Positions 38,675 to 46,136 of a stretch of 64,000 nucleotides of DNA are shown here, in pieces. Below the pieces are notes generated by a model, which saw nothing but the letters and a program-made list of their open reading frames with translations, had not been told where the DNA came from and ran no database searches. The first letter of the stretch is position 1; every line of letters begins with the position of its first letter. The DNA is from Ostreococcus lucimarinus (taxonomy: Eukaryota), in assembly GCA_000092065.1 (NCBI GenBank), contig CP000593.1. One strand, 5' to 3'. Both the position numbers and the translations under genes were made by a program.

Positions 38675-41410
38675 TCACCGGGAAAGCGCCTCTGAGCGCG
38701 GCGGTGGCGAAAGCGATTGTCGCCGAGGTCTAGACGCTCGAGCTACTACTCTCGCCTCGGCTAAGCCTGTCTCCATGTTAGATACCGTCAGATTCAGGAG
38801 TGTCTCGAGCTGAGCAGTGACTTCGCTGAGTCGCTCGTTCGTTTCCGCCAACGCAGCTGTTTGCTTTGCCTGTGAAGATGTTATTTTACGATCGAGGGGC
38901 ACGAGGCGATTGGTGAGTTCGTCTACGCGGGTTTGCAACCGTTGAAGAGGATTCTCTGTGGATGTAGTATCCCACCCAGCCGCCGCAGCGGTGATCACGG
39001 GCGCTCGTGCGCTTGTCACGGGCGTCTGCGGCGGTGCTCCGTCTGTCGACGCCTTGTTAGCTCCCTTGCGCGGCGCCGTCATCGCCTTGCCCGTCGCCGC
39101 TTGTAGCGCTGTCGCCATCAAACTTGGCGGTCCAGAAGATTCATTTGTGACTACGTCTTCGATGTTCCCGTGATCGAGCAAAGAATTCAATTTCCGATGC
39201 ATCTCGGTCAGGGAGTACGCCAGGCGCCAATGAAACACGTCCACGGCGCGAGCCGTGTAACTCATCGGATCTCTCTCGCGTAATACTTTGTGGAAAATTC
39301 CTTGAACACCACGCTCAACGAGGAGTCGGTGGAGTGACACCCTATGAATCATGCCTCTGAAACGTTTCTGAATGACAACTGCCGCCTTCGTCTTCTGCTC
39401 GAGGATTTTCGGATCGTCCAAACCTTCTCCGTCGTCTCCGTAAATTATTCGCAACTTTTGTAAATAAAACGCAGGACGTGCGCTGACTTCGCGTGATAAA
39501 TCTGCGTCTAAGCCATACTTCTTCAAAGCGGTGTATGCTTTGGTATACGCGATTATTTCGCCTCTAAAAATAATCTTGATACCTTTGAGACGGAAGAACT
39601 TTTTCGTCGCGGGGAATGGCGCGAGCGACTCGTGAAAATCTTCGCGTTCGAGGGTGTAGATGTTCGCGTACGTCAACGCCTGTGCGCCGTAGAGCAGCGT
39701 ATCGGATGAGTACAACGCCTCCTCTGCGATAGTTTTCCCAGACATTTTTATCAATCCATCGACTTGAACGACACCACGGCGAATGAGGAAAATGGTTGAC
39801 ACTGCATCACCGGGTCTGAACAACGTCTCCTCTGGCGGAAACGTGTGCTCGACGACACGAGTCGACAAGTGAATGACCAGTGGCTCAGGGCAGTGTTTGA
39901 AAAAGTCGATATTACGTATCCACGTATTCATGCGCATAGTGCACTCAGATCGCAATGCCGGCGACATTTTGTCGAGCAATCTTCTGTACACGTCGGCGTC
40001 GGCGCCATCGAGTTGATACTTGAAATACTCTCGTAAGCGAACGCGCAAATCCTGGGGAAAACCGTGATCAATTAGGAATCCATTCAAGTCCCGCATCACG
40101 CCTTGGAACTTGTTCACCTTTTCGTTCCTCGTGGCGATGACGTTCGACACAGCCCCCACGATGTAACCGTACTCAAACGCGCCGATGAGCATGGCCATGA
40201 TGACGTACACTCGCTCTCCAGTCGTTACTGGAACGATGTCTCCGTAACCGATGGTGGAGATGGTCATCGTGGACCAGTATAGCGCCGCAAGATACAGCCT
40301 CAACGAGCCGACGATCTCTCGCGGCTCACCCCCGTCGGGACCGATGACCAAATCTCCGAACTCTGTGGATCGCGTCCAAGAGTACTTCGTCCCTTCCAAA
40401 TCTTCAACCAAGCCGAATCCACACGCGAGCCAATGCGCAAACATGATTGCCGTCAAGCCAAACTTCATGAGCTCTAATAATGAGTAATCGATGGTGTAAA
40501 CCAATTCCAGCCGCTTGTAAATTCGGTTCACTCGTAAAATCCGCACGAGTTTGACGAGACGCAGAAGACGCAACGTCCTCAGAATACTGAGCTGCGCCAA
40601 CGCGCTCGAGCCGACGCCCAAATACATGGCGTCGAACGGAATCGCCGACAAAAAGTCTATGACAAACCACTTTTTGAGATACGTTCGGGCGACGTACGCC
40701 TGATTGTAAACCAAGTGCCCAGTGCGGTGATGAGGCGTGGCGATGAAAAAGTTCAACACGAGGTCGGTGACAAAGCAAGCCGTCACGAACTGGTTGATGT
40801 AAAACAACGCGTTGAAACTCGGGGTATAGAAACCGACTTCCATCGGAGTCACGATGGCGGTGTAACACAACAAAGCCATCATCACCGCCTCCCACTTTTG
40901 CAGAACGGGCTTTTGCGGCGACAACACCGCACGACTCTTCTTGTATCGAGCGCTCTGTTTCTTTCGAATCCGCAAAGTCTGCTGGCGATTCTCGCTCTTC
41001 TTTTTGCTCGTAGACTTTGAACCTTTCTCCGAAGACGAGCTAAAAATACTGCTGCTTACGGATCCGGTCTTCGCGTCGAGCGTCAAGCACGCCGCCGCCT
41101 CCGCCCGCATCAAATCCAACGCCGTCAGCGCGTGCGCGTGTCCCGCGCCCCGATCACTATCTCGCAAGCTCTGTCGTCCGTGTCGCCATCGCGAATACGC
41201 CTCATTCGCGTTCTCTGACGCAGATCCTTCATCGGTGTCGCTCGGCGAGCGGCGCCCGTTCCCCTCGCGTCCCCGTCCGTTCGCCGTCCGCCACGCCGCG
41301 TCCGCGTCCGCGTCCGCGTCGCCCATCGATCGTCCGGAGCGCATCACCGCGTCCATCGCTTCGAAGCCGTCGGCGTCGTCGTCGTCGTCGCGCGCGTCGC
41401 GTCGGTCCAT
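38675..41410 (-). CDS. Voltage-gated K+ channel with a C-terminal cNMP-binding-homology domain and coiled-coil (plant Shaker/EAG-like)
   Basis: Pore TISTIGYGDIVPVTTGERV, an S4 region LRTLRLLRLVKLVRILRVNRIYKRL, and a cNBD-like beta-roll (LFRPGDAVSTIFLIRRGVVQV). Confidence 0.8.
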   Translation of the reverse strand: MDRRDARDDDDDADGFEAMDAVMRSGRSMGDADADADAAWRTANGRGREGNGRRSPSDTDEGSASENANEAYSRWRHGRQSLRDSDRGAGHAHALTALDLMRAEAAACLTLDAKTGSVSSSIFSSSSEKGSKSTSKKKSENRQQTLRIRKKQSARYKKSRAVLSPQKPVLQKWEAVMMALLCYTAIVTPMEVGFYTPSFNALFYINQFVTACFVTDLVLNFFIATPHHRTGHLVYNQAYVARTYLKKWFVIDFLSAIPFDAMYLGVGSSALAQLSILRTLRLLRLVKLVRILRVNRIYKRLELVYTIDYSLLELMKFGLTAIMFAHWLACGFGLVEDLEGTKYSWTRSTEFGDLVIGPDGGEPREIVGSLRLYLAALYWSTMTISTIGYGDIVPVTTGERVYVIMAMLIGAFEYGYIVGAVSNVIATRNEKVNKFQGVMRDLNGFLIDHGFPQDLRVRLREYFKYQLDGADADVYRRLLDKMSPALRSECTMRMNTWIRNIDFFKHCPEPLVIHLSTRVVEHTFPPEETLFRPGDAVSTIFLIRRGVVQVDGLIKMSGKTIAEEALYSSDTLLYGAQALTYANIYTLEREDFHESLAPFPATKKFFRLKGIKIIFRGEIIAYTKAYTALKKYGLDADLSREVSARPAFYLQKLRIIYGDDGEGLDDPKILEQKTKAAVVIQKRFRGMIHRVSLHRLLVERGVQGIFHKVLRERDPMSYTARAVDVFHWRLAYSLTEMHRKLNSLLDHGNIEDVVTNESSGPPSLMATALQAATGKAMTAPRKGANKASTDGAPPQTPVTSARAPVITAAAAGWDTTSTENPLQRLQTRVDELTNRLVPLDRKITSSQAKQTAALAETNERLSEVTAQLETLLNLTVSNMETGLAEARVVARASRPRRQSLSPPPRSEALSR

Positions 41411-41693: not shown

Positions 41694-43797
41694 CTATCCA
41701 CGCTTTGCGCCGCAAAAGGCGCAAAATTTCGCCGCGGGCTTGTCGAAGCCGACGCCGCAGGAGATACAAAACTTTGCGCCGCGAGACGCGCCGGCGGTGG
41801 CGCGTCCGATGCCGGGCGCGAGCGTCTCGCAGTCGGCGCCGAGAGGAGTCTGATCGAGGAATTCGGGCTCTGGGATGCCTCGGGTGTCGCAAACGCGACA
41901 GGCGAATAAGGAACCGGCATCCATGCGACCGGGCTCGGCGCGCGTGGTGACAAAGAGTGTGTCGAGTTCGGGGCCGCCGAGCGTGACGGAGGTGGGCGCC
42001 TTGACGGGGAGCTCGACGACGAGGTCGACGGCGCCTTGCGGGGTGATGCGAATGACTTGACCGGCGCCGGAAATCGCAGCCCACAAGTTACCGTCTTCGT
42101 CGCACTGCGCGCCATCGGGTCCGCCGCTCATCGAGCTCGGGAGCTCGTAGAGAAGGCGACGATTGGACGGTCCGACGCGAGAGTCGTAGTCGAACTGGTA
42201 AATTTTCCGCGTCGGTGTATCGCAGAAAAACATCGTCGTTCCCGATCTCGAGAAGCAAATGCAGTTGCTGCACCTGAATTTGTAGTCCAGAATTTCTTCC
42301 AACTCGCCTCCGTTTCCGGGCAGGCGCCATAATCCGCCGATGGGCGCCGCGTCAACGCGGTGGGCGTTGTTGTACGAACCGATGACAAAGGAGCCGGCTC
42401 GGTCGACTCGCCCGTCGTTCGGGCGCGTGTTCAATCCAGGTTCGAACTCGCTCAAGAGCTTCAACTTCTTCGTCGACGGGTCGAATGCGTGGAGTCCAGA
42501 CTCTAAACCGAGGAGCAAGGTGCCGTTAGACCGAAGCGCGACGCAGCCGAGCGTCTCTCCGAAGTTGTTTCGTGTGGGCGCCGACTTCAAGTCCCACGAA
42601 AACAACGTACCGCTCGGTGCGTCGACCCAGTAAAGGGTCTGACGTTCTTGCGACCATATCGGAGACTCGCCGAGTTGCATGCCGCAAGGAACGACTTCTT
42701 CGGCCCAGAGCTTTTGCGGTCCTACGGGGGATTCGTCAAAGTTGAAGATTCTGCCAAACTGCTCGGCGTTGAGCGAGGCCCCGCCGACGAGGCAACCATC
42801 GACGTCCGGCGCCTGCATGAGCTCATCCACCGTTTCTGGCTTCACGCTACCACCGTACTGAATTTGAATTTTCGCCGCCACGGATTCGCCGTAATTCGTT
42901 CGGAACCATTGGCGAATGCCCGCGTGAACTGACTGGGCGATCGCCGGCGTCGCCGTTAATCCCGTGCCGATGGCCCACACGGGCTCGTACGCGATGATAA
43001 CCTTGGACATTTCATCCGCTTCTACACCGCTGAGCGCCGCGCTGAGTTGCCTGTTGCAGACCTTTTTCGCCTCACCTCGTTCGTACTCTTCCTTCGTTTC
43101 GCCGATGCACAGTACCGCGGTCATGCCGCAGTCGAGCGTCTTTCGAGTCTTGAGTCGCGTCATCTCATCCGTCTCCCCGAAAAGTTCTCGGCGTTCAGAG
43201 TGCCCGATGAGCACGTGCGTGCACCCCACGCTCTTCGCCATTTCCGCGCTCATCTCCCCCGTGAACGCACCCGAGGCTTCGAAGTAAATATTCTGAGCCC
43301 CCACGGCGACGCCGCTTCCCTCCAACTACGTTTAGGATAACGTTAACGTTCGCGTCAGTCCATCGTCCGAGTTCGCGCGCGCGCCCGCGCTTCGACTCAT
43401 CCCGCGCGAGTCCGCGTAACTATGACTATGAATTTCAAAAGCAGCAGCCCCGGTAGAGGACCGGCTTCAATTCTCAACAATGTGTAAAGTCTCTTCATCC
43501 TCGCTCGATTCGGATAGAATCGCGTTCCTTCGTCGCGTCGCGCGTTCGCTTCGTTCGTACCGTTCTCGCCACCTCAGCCGCAAACGGCGCCGGCGGACAC
43601 ACAAAAACCTCTGTTTTACTCTTATTCGTCCCGATTCCACCGTCTCGCGCCGCCGCGCCGACCAACGCCGCCAACGTCCTCGCCTCGTCCAGCGTCTTCG
43701 GGTTGAGCTTCCAATTCCCCGCCATGACCGCGTTTCTCTTCCCTCGCCCGCTCTCATCGCGCGCGCCGACCTCCGCGCGCACGCTCGCCATCGCCAT
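41694..43797 (-). CDS. TPI: Triose-phosphate isomerase fused to an SMP-30/gluconolactonase/LRE-like (SGL) beta-propeller plus a C-terminal zinc ribbon, two exons: complement(join(41694..43325,43561..43797))
   Basis: Exon 1 gives the short presequence MAMASVRAEVGARDESGRGKRNAV followed by MAGNWKLNPK...EVFVCPPAPFAAEVART. Exon 2 begins LEGSGVAVGAQNIYFEASGAFTGE, aligning with human TPI ...[27 protein letters not shown]. TIM catalytic blocks are present: VLIGHSERR, AYEPVWAIGTG, YGGSV, GCLVGGASL. The same ORF then continues without a stop into an SGL domain (VVPCGMQLGESPIWSQERQTLYWVDAPSG...RPNDGRVDRAGSF...GGPDGAQCDEDGNLWAA...TSVTLGGPELDTLFVTT), which aligns with regucalcin. It ends with CISCG...CAFCG. 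The start could lie further upstream, up to about 44010, if a longer transit peptide is used. Confidence 0.75.
43326..43560 (-). other. Spliceosomal intron of the TPI gene (235 nt, phase 0): donor GTACGA, branch-like GGACTGACG, acceptor AACGTAG
   Basis: The stop codon separating the two TIM ORF pieces is removed, and the TIM alignment (ART|LEGSGVAVGAQN) is restored. Confidence 0.75.
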
Positions 43798-44075
43798 GGA
43801 CCTTTCGAGCGCATCGATCGCCTCCGCGCGCTCCCCCGGCGCTCTCAGCGCGTCATCTTTCGTCGCCGCCGGCGATTCTCGGCGGCGGTTGAATCGATCG
43901 AACACGCCCGCGCGCGTCGTCGCGCGTCGACCCCGTCGCGCCGCGCGCGTCGTCGCCGCGCTCGCGCCCGCGCTTCGCCCGCGCATCGCGCTCTGCCGCG
44001 CGCCGAGCATCGCGACGTCGCGCGCGCGCGTCGTCGTGTGTCGAGCGCGGTCGCCAGTGCGCGACGCGACGCGCG
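43798..44075. promoter_or_regulatory. Short divergent promoter region between the TPI-fusion gene (minus) and the ARC3-like gene (plus)
   Basis: Head-to-head starts within 280 bp or less. Confidence 0.3.
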
Positions 44076-46136
44076 ATGCGCGCGGCGCGCGCGCGGACCG
44101 GCGCGATCGGCGCGCGCGCGACGCGGCGCGCGTCGTCGACGCGCGCGCGTCGCGACGCGGCGCGCATCGGCGCGTCCGCGGCGTCGAAATCATCGTCGCC
44201 GTCGTCCGAGAGGGACGACATCGGCGCGGACGGCGCCGGCGTCGCCGTCGTCGGCGTCGGCGCGCGCGGGTGCGCGCTCGTCGACGCGCTCGTCGACGCC
44301 AGAGCGCTGCCGAGGGCGGAGATGTGGGCGATGCACGCGGACGAGGACGCGCTCGAGCGCTCGCGCGCGGCGAACCGGTGGCGGTTGCCGCCGGCGAACG
44401 TCGAGGCGACGACGACGGCGATCGAGGGCAACGCGGCGAGCGCGGCGAGAGCGGTGATGGCGATGGGAGCGCCGAGGGTGATGGTGGTCGTGTGCGCGGG
44501 AGGGGAGGCGGTGGAGAGCGCGACGGCGTTTACGCGATGGGCGACGCGGGAGAAGAACGCGCGAGCGAAGAAGAAACGGTTTTTTGGATTCAAGGGAGCG
44601 AATCGCGCGCCGGAGGGTGAGATCATGATCGCGGGGGTGATCGAACCGTTCACGTTCGAGGGAAGGCGGAAGCAACGCGGGTGCGATGAGTTTTTGAGAG
44701 CGTGCGCGGAGCCGGGGGCGTGCGACGCGGCGCTGACGGTGTCGCAGTCCGAGCTGTTGAAGAACGGAGAGGATGGAATGTCCGTGCAAGACGCGACGTC
44801 GATCGCGGATGCGTCTTTGTTGTACGCCGTGCTGAGCGCGGTGGAATCGCTCCGATCGAGCTGCTGGAGCTCGGGCGGGGAACGCGACGCGAGCGACGTC
44901 GACGCGTGGACGCCTCAAATCGAAAAGGGTGGGCGTCTTCGGGCGAAGGTGAACGATGTCATGTCGTCTCACGGTGGTGGGTGCGGCGTCGCGCACGTAG
45001 GTCGCGGTGTCGCCGATGTGCCGACGTACGGAAGCGCGGACGAGGCGATCGCCGCCGCCGCGCGCGCCGCCATCGCGACGGCGGCGCGGCAGAGTCCTTT
45101 TCTGGCTCCCGGGCGCTTCGACACCGCTCGATTGGTCATCTGCACCGTGAAGCACGGCAACGCGTTTGGACCGCTCGCGCGCGCGACGATTTCTCAAGCG
45201 CTGAGTGAACTCACGAGTGCGGAACAATTCATTTCAATCGCGAATCCAGACAAGAGAGGCTCGACCGAAGTGGAAGTGACCCTGCTCACCGTCACCGACG
45301 CCGAAACGGCGGCGGCACCGGCGCCGGAATCAAAGACCGTTCCCGTCGTGTCCGAGGACCCACTGCATAAGTCGAATCCGATGCTGTTCGTGCCTGGATA
45401 CGTTGCCGGCGAAGAGCAGACAAAGCGTAAGACGACGAAGCTTTCGCGGGACGATTTGAAAAATTTCGGTAACGACGACACGCAAGCGATTGTCGCCACG
45501 GAAGAGCGCGCCGTAATTTTCACCTCCGATCAACTCGCGACGACTGCCGTCATCGCACCGGAAGTAACCGGCGCTGAGCGCTCTTCACGCTCCGCTGCGC
45601 TTCCTCTCCCGCGCGACTTCGCCACCAAGCAAGTCACCGTGCGCGTCAGCGAACCGCGGATGGACGAGTCTGGTAACGTCATCGGCTACAAGACGTTGCA
45701 AGGCGAGGAACCGGACAAAAAGTCTTCACCGGTCAAAACTCTGTTTGGGTGGCGACCCGACAAACCCAAAAAGCAAGAAAAATCTGAACTCTCCAGGCGC
45801 GCGCTCGGCATGCTCGAACAAGACGGGAAAAGAAGAGGAGCCGCCGTTCGAATGGAATTCGCCAACACCTCCGTCTACGAAGGCGAATGGGCGGACGGAA
45901 AACGCGAGGGTGTCGGTCGTCAAGTATTTGCGGACGGTGATTGGTACGAGGGGAATTGGTTTGCAGATCTCCCGGACGGGAAAGGGAAGCTTAGCTTCAA
46001 GACGGGAGAAAACAGCTTCTTTGAAGGCATGTTCAACGCGGGCGTGCCGGATGGCCCGGGTAAGCTCGTGCGCACATCGGGCGACGAGCTCGTCGGCATG
46101 TGGCGCGACGGTGCGTACGTGGACGAGGAGAATTAG
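44076..46136 (+). CDS. ARC3: ARC3-like chloroplast division protein (FtsZ-like GTPase-fold N-domain + C-terminal MORN repeats)
   Basis: N-terminal transit-peptide-like region. An FtsZ-like block VAVVGVGARGCALVDALV...MWAMHADEDAL...VMVVVCAGGEAV. C-terminal MORN repeats (YEGEWADGKREGVGRQVFADGDWYEGNWFADLPDGKGKLSF...FEGMFNAGVPDGPGKLV). FtsZ+MORN is the defining ARC3 architecture. Confidence 0.6.
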   Translation: MRAARARTGAIGARATRRASSTRARRDAARIGASAASKSSSPSSERDDIGADGAGVAVVGVGARGCALVDALVDARALPRAEMWAMHADEDALERSRAANRWRLPPANVEATTTAIEGNAASAARAVMAMGAPRVMVVVCAGGEAVESATAFTRWATREKNARAKKKRFFGFKGANRAPEGEIMIAGVIEPFTFEGRRKQRGCDEFLRACAEPGACDAALTVSQSELLKNGEDGMSVQDATSIADASLLYAVLSAVESLRSSCWSSGGERDASDVDAWTPQIEKGGRLRAKVNDVMSSHGGGCGVAHVGRGVADVPTYGSADEAIAAAARAAIATAARQSPFLAPGRFDTARLVICTVKHGNAFGPLARATISQALSELTSAEQFISIANPDKRGSTEVEVTLLTVTDAETAAAPAPESKTVPVVSEDPLHKSNPMLFVPGYVAGEEQTKRKTTKLSRDDLKNFGNDDTQAIVATEERAVIFTSDQLATTAVIAPEVTGAERSSRSAALPLPRDFATKQVTVRVSEPRMDESGNVIGYKTLQGEEPDKKSSPVKTLFGWRPDKPKKQEKSELSRRALGMLEQDGKRRGAAVRMEFANTSVYEGEWADGKREGVGRQVFADGDWYEGNWFADLPDGKGKLSFKTGENSFFEGMFNAGVPDGPGKLVRTSGDELVGMWRDGAYVDEEN

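Follow-up and report, generated by a model that had tools for sequence, protein, structure and literature searches.

Triose-phosphate isomerase fused to an SMP-30-type propeller in Ostreococcus lucimarinus: a widespread algal fusion and a predicted plastid protein

A 64,000-nucleotide stretch of contig CP000593.1 of Ostreococcus lucimarinus (GenBank assembly GCA_000092065.1; hereafter, the window) carries on its minus strand a gene in which a triose-phosphate isomerase (TPI) domain of the TIM family is joined in frame to a six-bladed beta-propeller of the SMP-30/gluconolactonase (SGL) family. This TIM-SGL fusion is ancient and widespread in plastid-bearing algae, namely, green algae, diatoms, haptophytes and chlorarachniophytes. 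The locus probably represents a nuclear-encoded, plastid-targeted bifunctional TPI/aldonolactonase of about 693 amino acids (aa) that forms a rigid two-domain unit, both activities being predicted. TPI ranks with the most thoroughly studied enzymes; in its usual form, it is a 250-aa dimer with no covalent partner. The original prediction for this locus, made from the DNA sequence, had described the fusion and considered that it might be a rare gene-fusion event, which is contradicted by the phylogenetic spread reported below.

The two domains are encoded in one uninterrupted exon, as had been proposed: the minus-strand open reading frame (ORF) 41694..43325 encodes 543 aa and contains no internal stop. 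In the product of this ORF, the Pfam TIM profile (PF00121) matches aa 4-195 with 256.8 bits (cutoff, 20.1; E = 2.7e-76), and the SGL profile (PF08450) matches aa 218-461 with 221.6 bits (cutoff, 26.3; E = 1.6e-65), over profile positions 1-244 of 246. Thus, in the profile check suggested together with the original prediction, both domains score above the cutoff. The TPI equivalog model TIGR00419 is passed as well (172 bits against 130.6). The score against NF010569, the equivalog of the PGK-TIM fusion, is 244 bits compared to the required 883, with the match confined to the TIM part of that profile (449-643), and the SGL half has no informative lactonase counterpart among the NCBIfam models.

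The TIM barrel includes the motifs AGNWK, GAQNIYFE, GHSERR, AYEPVWAIGTG, YGGS and VGGAS and ends with ...AEQFGRIFNFDE, followed, with no stop between the domains, by the beginning of the SGL domain, SPVGPQKLWAEEVVPCGMQLGESPIW. All the motifs on which the original prediction relied, that is, GAQNIYFE, HSERR, AYEPVWAIGTG, GGASL, both of these domain borders and the C-terminal CxxC...CxxC pattern, are present in the sequence. The metal-binding and catalytic residues of the SGL family are represented by E in GESPIW, R, N and D in TRPNDG, N in RCSN and D in GPDGAQCD. In exon-2 numbering, E220, R301, N303, N354 and D404 align to E18, R101, N103, N154 and D204 of SMP30 and to the corresponding residues of 7plb. 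A search of the window detected each of the two domains once, so that the gene is single-copy there.

Among the best 120 protein clusters, all but one contain PF00121 and PF08450 together; the exception, P0019, is a 372-aa partial sequence with PF08450 only. The search for the same domain pair in other algae, which had been recommended as a check, recovered it in Mamiellophyceae, Chlamydomonas, other green algae and beyond. The green carriers identified by name are Chlamydomonas sp. UWO241, C. eustigma, Pedinophyceae and Prasinococcus; the others include the haptophyte Prymnesium parvum, the diatoms Nitzschia, Chaetoceros, Cylindrotheca and Pseudo-nitzschia, and the chlorarachniophyte Amorphochlora. 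Closer to the window, the same continuous ORF, with 98% identity and the same gene neighbours, was found on 11 independent marine metagenome contigs, and a continuous fusion ORF is also present in relatives at about 80% and at 57-60% identity (including Mamiellaceae sp. RCC2288). Peptides from the MMETSP transcriptomes, P0012 (Mamiellaceae sp. RCC2288) and P0101, span both domains, indicating that in these relatives the domains reside on one mRNA. P0101, the MMETSP1360 orthologue, is additionally extended at its C-terminus by about 250 aa of low complexity.

Conservation was assessed in alignments of 16, 97 and 85 orthologues. The catalytic His and Glu of TIM and its GG are invariant, and the Asn and Lys are conserved in 90% or more of the sequences (97 orthologues); the phosphate-gripper motifs of loop 6, loop 7 and loop 8 are conserved in the orthologue alignments. 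In the SGL domain, the E, R, N, D, N, D set is invariant (85-97 fusion orthologues). Judging from these residues, both halves look catalytically intact. The linker between the domains, 5 aa in the window protein and 10-25 aa in other orthologues, holds a nearly invariant Pro; in the Amorphochlora orthologue, it contains an insert of about 60 aa that is apparently a coiled coil. Many diatom and haptophyte orthologues share a VWY[DE]DS motif located directly before the TIM domain.

A protein of the plastid or the cytosol had been envisaged originally, and the orthologues strongly favour the plastid. A signal peptide followed by the 'ASAFAP' signature directs import into complex plastids. In the chlorophyll-c lineage, at least 36 orthologues combine a hydrophobic signal peptide with [ASGC]x[ASGC]/F (the slash denotes the cleavage site) when a strict regular expression is applied, and further ones were recognized by eye; examples are SVDA/FGIAP, SLATA/FVFG and SHA/FAPRS, as well as SLLA/FRAPFAP in Prymnesium. 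The orthologues of the green lineage have long presequences that are free of acidic residues and rich in R, A, S and T. The first 35 aa of the window protein, counted from the ATG at 44010, include 10 A, 9 R, 5 G, 4 T and 3 S, with no D or E, a composition that fits a chloroplast transit peptide and a mitochondrial one alike. The acid-free stretch is followed by a conserved helix, AIDALERSMA, which corresponds to a helix at residues 52-66 in the model of an orthologue. Because diatom, haptophyte and chlorarachniophyte orthologues bear bipartite plastid signals, assignment of the window protein to the plastid by orthology is strongly favoured.

AlphaFold models were obtained for P0013, a full-length orthologue that is 57% identical to the window protein, and for the exon-2 product of the window, which does not include the part of TIM encoded in exon 1. 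The P0013 model has a mean predicted local distance difference test (pLDDT) score of 84.7 and a predicted template modelling (pTM) score of 0.80, with disorder restricted to the transit peptide and the spacer that precedes the ribbon (pLDDT below 50 at residues 635-665); the respective values for the exon-2 model are 90.9 and 0.84. In both models, the pLDDT of the SGL domain is above 90 and that of the linker is 72-91. A Foldseek comparison aligned the TIM part of the P0013 model with the bacterial TIM 4y96 (TMt 0.96; root-mean-square deviation, 1.4 A; 48% identity) and the propeller with mouse SMP30 4gn7 (TMt 0.88) and human 3g4e (0.87), and detected no solved chain spanning both parts (maximum TMq, 0.39). 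Given that the pTM is 0.80-0.84 over two domains, their mutual arrangement appears to be confidently predicted, and we infer that the TIM barrel and the propeller (approximately 250 and 290 residues, respectively) are packed as one rigid unit rather than as beads on a string.

The TIM half scores higher with the bacterial enzyme of Gemmata obscuriglobus (4Y96; about 221 bits, E = 1.4e-64) than with extant eukaryotic cytosolic TIMs (about 187 bits). This bacterial leaning agrees with the table of Kroth et al. 2008 (PMC2173943), where both plastid TPIs of Phaeodactylum have bacterial best hits. The fusion protein and 4Y96 share the same full (beta/alpha)8 barrel with all the catalytic and phosphate-gripper motifs; beyond these, the fusion adds a C-terminal extension of about 350 aa, consisting of the propeller and the ribbon, and the plastid presequence. 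Covalent attachment of TIM to a second metabolic enzyme has precedents in the PGK-TIM of Thermotoga (NF010569), with the TIM part of which the TIM half aligns well, and in the mitochondrial TPI-GAPDH of diatoms and oomycetes, likewise an organelle-targeted stramenopile protein (PMC2173943). In both of these proteins, however, the partner catalyses a neighbouring glycolytic step, whereas the lactonase partner in the present fusion has no known reaction adjacent to that of TPI.

The SGL half has 25-30% identity with SMP30/regucalcin, with luciferin-regenerating enzyme and with 7plb, an SMP-30/Cgr1 protein, namely, the Caulobacter xylonolactonase XylC. It shares with SMP30/regucalcin (4GN7, 3G4E) and 7PLB the six-bladed propeller and the metal and substrate residues, and differs from them by an invariant G-[SM]-Y-N-N-x-H-R lid, by extra Arg residues and by being joined to TIM. 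The scan of 185,579 prokaryotic genomes with the SGL alignment yielded 73 loci with at most 40% identity. These are mostly from Paraburkholderia, Trinickia, Dyella and Rhodanobacter, which contain the closest prokaryotic relatives (37-40%), and no record title among the 73 indicates a cyanobacterium. The conserved neighbours of the bacterial SGL genes encode an SDR dehydrogenase, a sugar ABC transporter, a KDPG-type aldolase and an aldose 1-epimerase, which is the classic setting of an aldonolactonase in oxidative sugar catabolism. These bacterial aldonolactonases have the TRxNDGRxDR and CDTPTR motifs in common with the fusion, but are stand-alone proteins of about 300 aa that lack the fusion lid as well as R351 and R462. 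A prokaryotic origin of the fusion was rejected because no TIM gene is located within 6 kb of the SGL gene at any of the 73 loci.

In an exhaustive HMMER search covering 1.84 billion representatives, the fusions came at the top, followed by unfused eukaryotic proteins at 40-45% identity and only then by the bacterial group. From this ranking, it follows that the fusion arose inside a eukaryotic SGL subfamily. The unfused members, from Mesostigma viride (P0222), Vitrella (P0223), Alphamonas (P0218) and Voromonas (P0233), share with the fusions the G-Y-N-[NE]-x-x-R lid and R-C-[SA]-N, but have no TIM domain and do not conserve R462; the Mesostigma protein has an N-terminal extension of its own. 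Five further proteins (P0220, P0287, P0291, P0301 and P0342) have either 2-5 SGL stretches each or an additional N-terminal domain, about 200 aa long, in front of the propeller; by position, none is TIM-related.

The residues that distinguish the fusions from their relatives were compared across 85 fusions, 8 unfused eukaryotic and 64 bacterial relatives, SMP30 and 7plb. The lid loop G-x-Y-N-N-x-H-R is invariant or nearly so in the fusions, compared to GTMAEETA in SMP30 and GTMHDGEE in 7plb. In the fusions, the metal-binding Asn is preceded, at a distance of three residues, by an Arg (R-[CV]-S-N), in place of Ala or Thr in the bacterial proteins and of Asp in SMP30, and another Arg lies in TTRGPDGG, where the other groups mostly have Ala. 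Overall, H322, R323, R351 and R462 are near-invariant in the fusions and are replaced with A, S, D, P, E or T in the bacterial relatives and with T, A, D and A, respectively, in SMP30. Because three to four invariant basic residues thus occupy positions that are neutral or acidic elsewhere, near the loops at the mouth of the SMP30 active site, the lactone substrate may be anionic, for example, a phospho- or carboxy-aldonolactone.

Under the scenario of a bifunctional plastid TPI/aldonolactonase, the protein would comprise, from the N-terminus to the C-terminus, a transit peptide, a bacterial-like TPI, a short linker, a metal-dependent propeller and, exclusively in green lineages, a four-Cys zinc ribbon. 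The TIM half would interconvert dihydroxyacetone phosphate and glyceraldehyde 3-phosphate in the stroma, within the Calvin cycle or plastid glycolysis. The SGL half would hydrolyse or form a sugar-acid lactone with the aid of a divalent metal coordinated by E/N/N/D as in SMP30 and xylonolactonase. Going further, the fusion could mark an undescribed plastid reaction tied to triose-phosphate isomerization, the interface between TIM and the propeller being conserved because the active sites or their regulation are coupled; we regard this extension as tentative and rather doubtful. An example of such a reaction would be the hydrolysis of a phosphorylated or carboxylated sugar lactone, a by-product or intermediate of the Calvin cycle or of plastid sugar-acid metabolism, in metabolite repair or in a shunt.

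Several considerations weigh against a rigid bifunctional plastid enzyme. For the plastid targeting of the window protein itself, the grounds are composition and orthology only, and pTM is an indirect gauge of domain packing. The gene models of the plastid TPIs of Phaeodactylum are only about 1.07 kb long (Kroth et al. 2008, PMC2173943); either the fusion is not present in all diatoms or those models are truncated. The same work reports evidence for possible post-translational cleavage of at least some fusion enzymes of diatoms, and the TIM-SGL protein, too, could be cleaved after import.

Other explanations of the fusion differ in what they assume about the propeller. It might be a non-catalytic regulatory or scaffold part of a plastid TPI, acting as a sensor of Ca2+ or another metal or in docking, with the ribbon as a further interaction or redox element. 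SMP30 was first described as a Ca-binding protein. The PDB molecule names also list it as regucalcin, and both the rigid packing on TIM suggested by the pTM of 0.80-0.84 and the gain of the zinc ribbon in one lineage only would suit such a role. We nevertheless consider a purely regulatory propeller unlikely: the metal and substrate residues of the SMP30 type, together with the additional residues of the pocket loops, are invariant across 85-97 orthologues from several phyla, as expected for catalysis. A little less probable again is a polyprotein that is translated and imported as one chain and then split by a stromal protease, releasing TIM and the lactonase into unrelated pathways. The possible cleavage of at least some diatom fusion enzymes (Kroth et al. 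2008, PMC2173943) provides a parallel, and the unfused SGL relatives in Mesostigma, Vitrella and colpodellids indicate that an SGL protein can act alone. However, such processing is poorly compatible with the linker, which measures only 5-25 aa, includes a Pro that is nearly invariant and has fair confidence in the models; the high pTM seems to imply a conserved interface, and the fusion has been retained in lineages that diverged long ago.

The SGL half could also be the aldonolactonase of ascorbate biosynthesis, which converts L-galactonate to L-galactono-1,4-lactone in the 'Euglena pathway' and would have been joined to TPI by accident. The aldonolactonase of this pathway is indeed SMP30-like, but GLDH, the next ascorbate enzyme, is mitochondrial, at variance with the targeting of the TIM-SGL protein to plastids. 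Furthermore, the family-specific basic residues are ill-suited to a neutral lactone, and conservation of the fusion is just as strong in green algae, which use the plant pathway (ascorbate review) and need no such step. Taken together, these points make a role in ascorbate synthesis improbable. In Wheeler 2015, SMP30 is mentioned only as the animal lactonase. Finally, an artefact, in which two adjacent genes would be joined in this genome only, by a mistake of sequencing or assembly or through loss of a stop codon, has a negligible probability. The ORF recurs in the 11 metagenome contigs (98%), in the relatives at 80% and 57-60% identity, across distant phyla and among assembled transcriptomes, which excludes such an error as well as a lineage-specific accident.

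That both domains belong to textbook families is already known, and the TIM+SGL architecture is visible in precomputed Pfam annotations. As the original prediction had presumed, no characterised protein with this architecture was found. A full-text literature search combining TPI with SMP-30, regucalcin, gluconolactonase or lactonase, and with diatoms, plastids or algae, identified no paper describing the fusion. The model of Phaeodactylum carbohydrate metabolism of Kroth et al. 2008 (PMC2173943) describes three enzyme fusions, TIM-SGL not being among them, and contains no plastid sugar-lactone reaction. The public names of the orthologues, 'triosephosphate isomerase' or 'hypothetical protein', and for fragments 'sugar lactone lactonase YvrE' or 'L-arabinonolactonase', miss the two-domain nature of the protein, which is of relevance for annotation.

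By Rosetta-stone logic, the breadth of its conservation suggests that, in the plastid, triose-phosphate metabolism is functionally linked to a reaction involving a sugar lactone. Should prasinophytes, diatoms and haptophytes rely on the fusion as their main stromal TPI, a large part of the carbon fixed in the sea would pass through an enzyme of which the second half is uncharacterised. The fusion overturns nothing, but it presents a deeply conserved puzzle at the centre of algal plastid carbon metabolism. This puzzle can be addressed directly by experiment: algae that contain the protein can be cultured, the relatives in diatoms and Chlamydomonas are candidate systems for genetic work, and both halves should be amenable to assays in vitro.

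The gene consists of two exons, in accordance with the original assignment of the TIM N-terminus to an upstream exon. Exon 1 encodes the N-terminal presequence of about 95 aa (43726..44010, minus strand, as are all parts of this gene), delineated by alignment to Mamiellophyceae orthologues, and the first 55 aa of the TIM barrel (43561..43725; MAGNWKLNP...PPAPFAAEVART), including the catalytic Asn and Lys, which were located with positions 2-53 of the Pfam TIM profile and by tblastn. An intron of 235 nucleotides with GT..AG borders (43326..43560) occupies a position shared with the relatives. Exon 1 ends at 43561 and exon 2 begins at 43325; splicing rebuilds ...PPAPFAAEVART/LEGSGVAVGAQN, a normal beta2-alpha2-beta3 stretch of TIM, and the spliced junction ...PPAPFAAEVART/LEGSGVAVGAQNIYFE aligns to the orthologues without gaps. 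Exon 2 encodes the rest of TIM (42732..43325; LEGSG...FGRIFNFDE), with the His of GHSERR, the Glu of AYEPVWAIGTG, YGGS and GGAS, as supported by the Pfam and TIGR00419 matches. It continues with the linker SPVGP (42717..42731), defined from the orthologue alignment, and the propeller (41853..42716), defined by PF08450 and by sequence matches to the PDB entries 7plb, 4gn7 and 3g4e. A low-complexity spacer (41772..41852; pLDDT 56-60) leads to the C-terminal CxxC-x11-CxxC tail (41697..41771; FCISCGVGFDKPAAKFCAFCGAKRG; pLDDT 72-84), and the stop codon is at 41694-41696.

With the ATG at 43797 as the start, the product is 622 aa long, as originally stated. This start is disfavoured, however, because coding similarity to the Mamiellophyceae orthologues extends 5' of it (RAGVFD...AIDALERSMA in the window compared to RAAIFQ...AVAALESAL). 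The ATG at 44010, from which the window protein reads MLGARQSAM... (MLGARQSAMRGRS...), is conserved in position in the 98%-identical strain L003 and in L006, a relative at about 80% identity that starts with MLASTARATRALF... at the equivalent place; in L003, an in-frame stop is located upstream of its MLDARARAM.... We prefer this conserved ATG as the likely start, which gives a predicted product of 150 + 543 = 693 aa with a presequence of about 95 aa, longer than the short one first proposed; the ATG at 43986 is a possible alternative. The ATG at 44193 was ruled out as a start by an in-frame stop at that place in the 98%-identical strain.

The C-terminal tail, FCISCG-x11-FCAFCG, had been described as a zinc ribbon. 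Its conserved Cys pattern bears out this description in part: FCxxCG-x9-11-FCxxCGxxR is common to the window protein, the Mamiellophyceae-like P0010, P0013 and P0017, and P0020 and P0024 (Chlamydomonas). In alignment A3, a CxxC...CxxC tail is confined to the green-like group (P0009-P0024), where it was detected in the window protein and in 13 further orthologues; no orthologue of the chlorophyll-c lineage has it. The isolated tail scores 20 bits (E = 5.9e-4) with PF13240 (Zn_Ribbon_1), for which the cutoff is 25; therefore, we refer to it as a zinc-ribbon-like motif of green-lineage orthologues and not as a confirmed member of the family.

The intron contains a block of about 100 nucleotides (approximately 43405-43505, minus strand) that is nearly invariant among genes whose proteins are 98%, about 80% and about 75% identical, whereas the flanking intron sequence has diverged. 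The block includes a C-box-like GGATGAAGA, a guide-like element GTCATAGTTAC and a terminal CGAG/CTCG stem; at the position of the D box, the orthologous locus L005 has CTGA and the window has CGGA. The top Rfam match, at the same position in three orthologous introns, is SNORD46, whose scores of 16.4, 18 and 25.6 bits do not reach the gathering threshold of 40. From these features, the block is probably an intron-hosted C/D-box snoRNA.

The neighbouring gene in head-to-head orientation (44076-46136, plus strand) encodes a 686-aa protein with an R/A/S-rich N-terminus and C-terminal MORN repeats (Pfam, 8.8e-15). These repeats, in combination with the N-terminal stretch GVAVVGVGARG, suggest a possible resemblance to the plastid-division protein ARC3. 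The ATG of the MORN gene is 65 bp from the TIM-SGL ATG at 44010 (the gap is 56 bp in L003), which makes for an extremely compact bidirectional promoter. The G+C content is 61% in the window and 78% across the divergent start region (43750-44500), where several frames of both strands contain ORFs exceeding 200 aa and, consequently, ORF length is by itself uninformative on coding. Downstream of the TIM-SGL gene, 38675-41410 (minus strand) encodes a 911-aa cyclic-nucleotide-binding K+ channel of the voltage-gated type, with Ion_trans, Ion_trans_2 and cNMP_binding domains and an IQ motif; this neighbour is syntenic in all the relatives compared.

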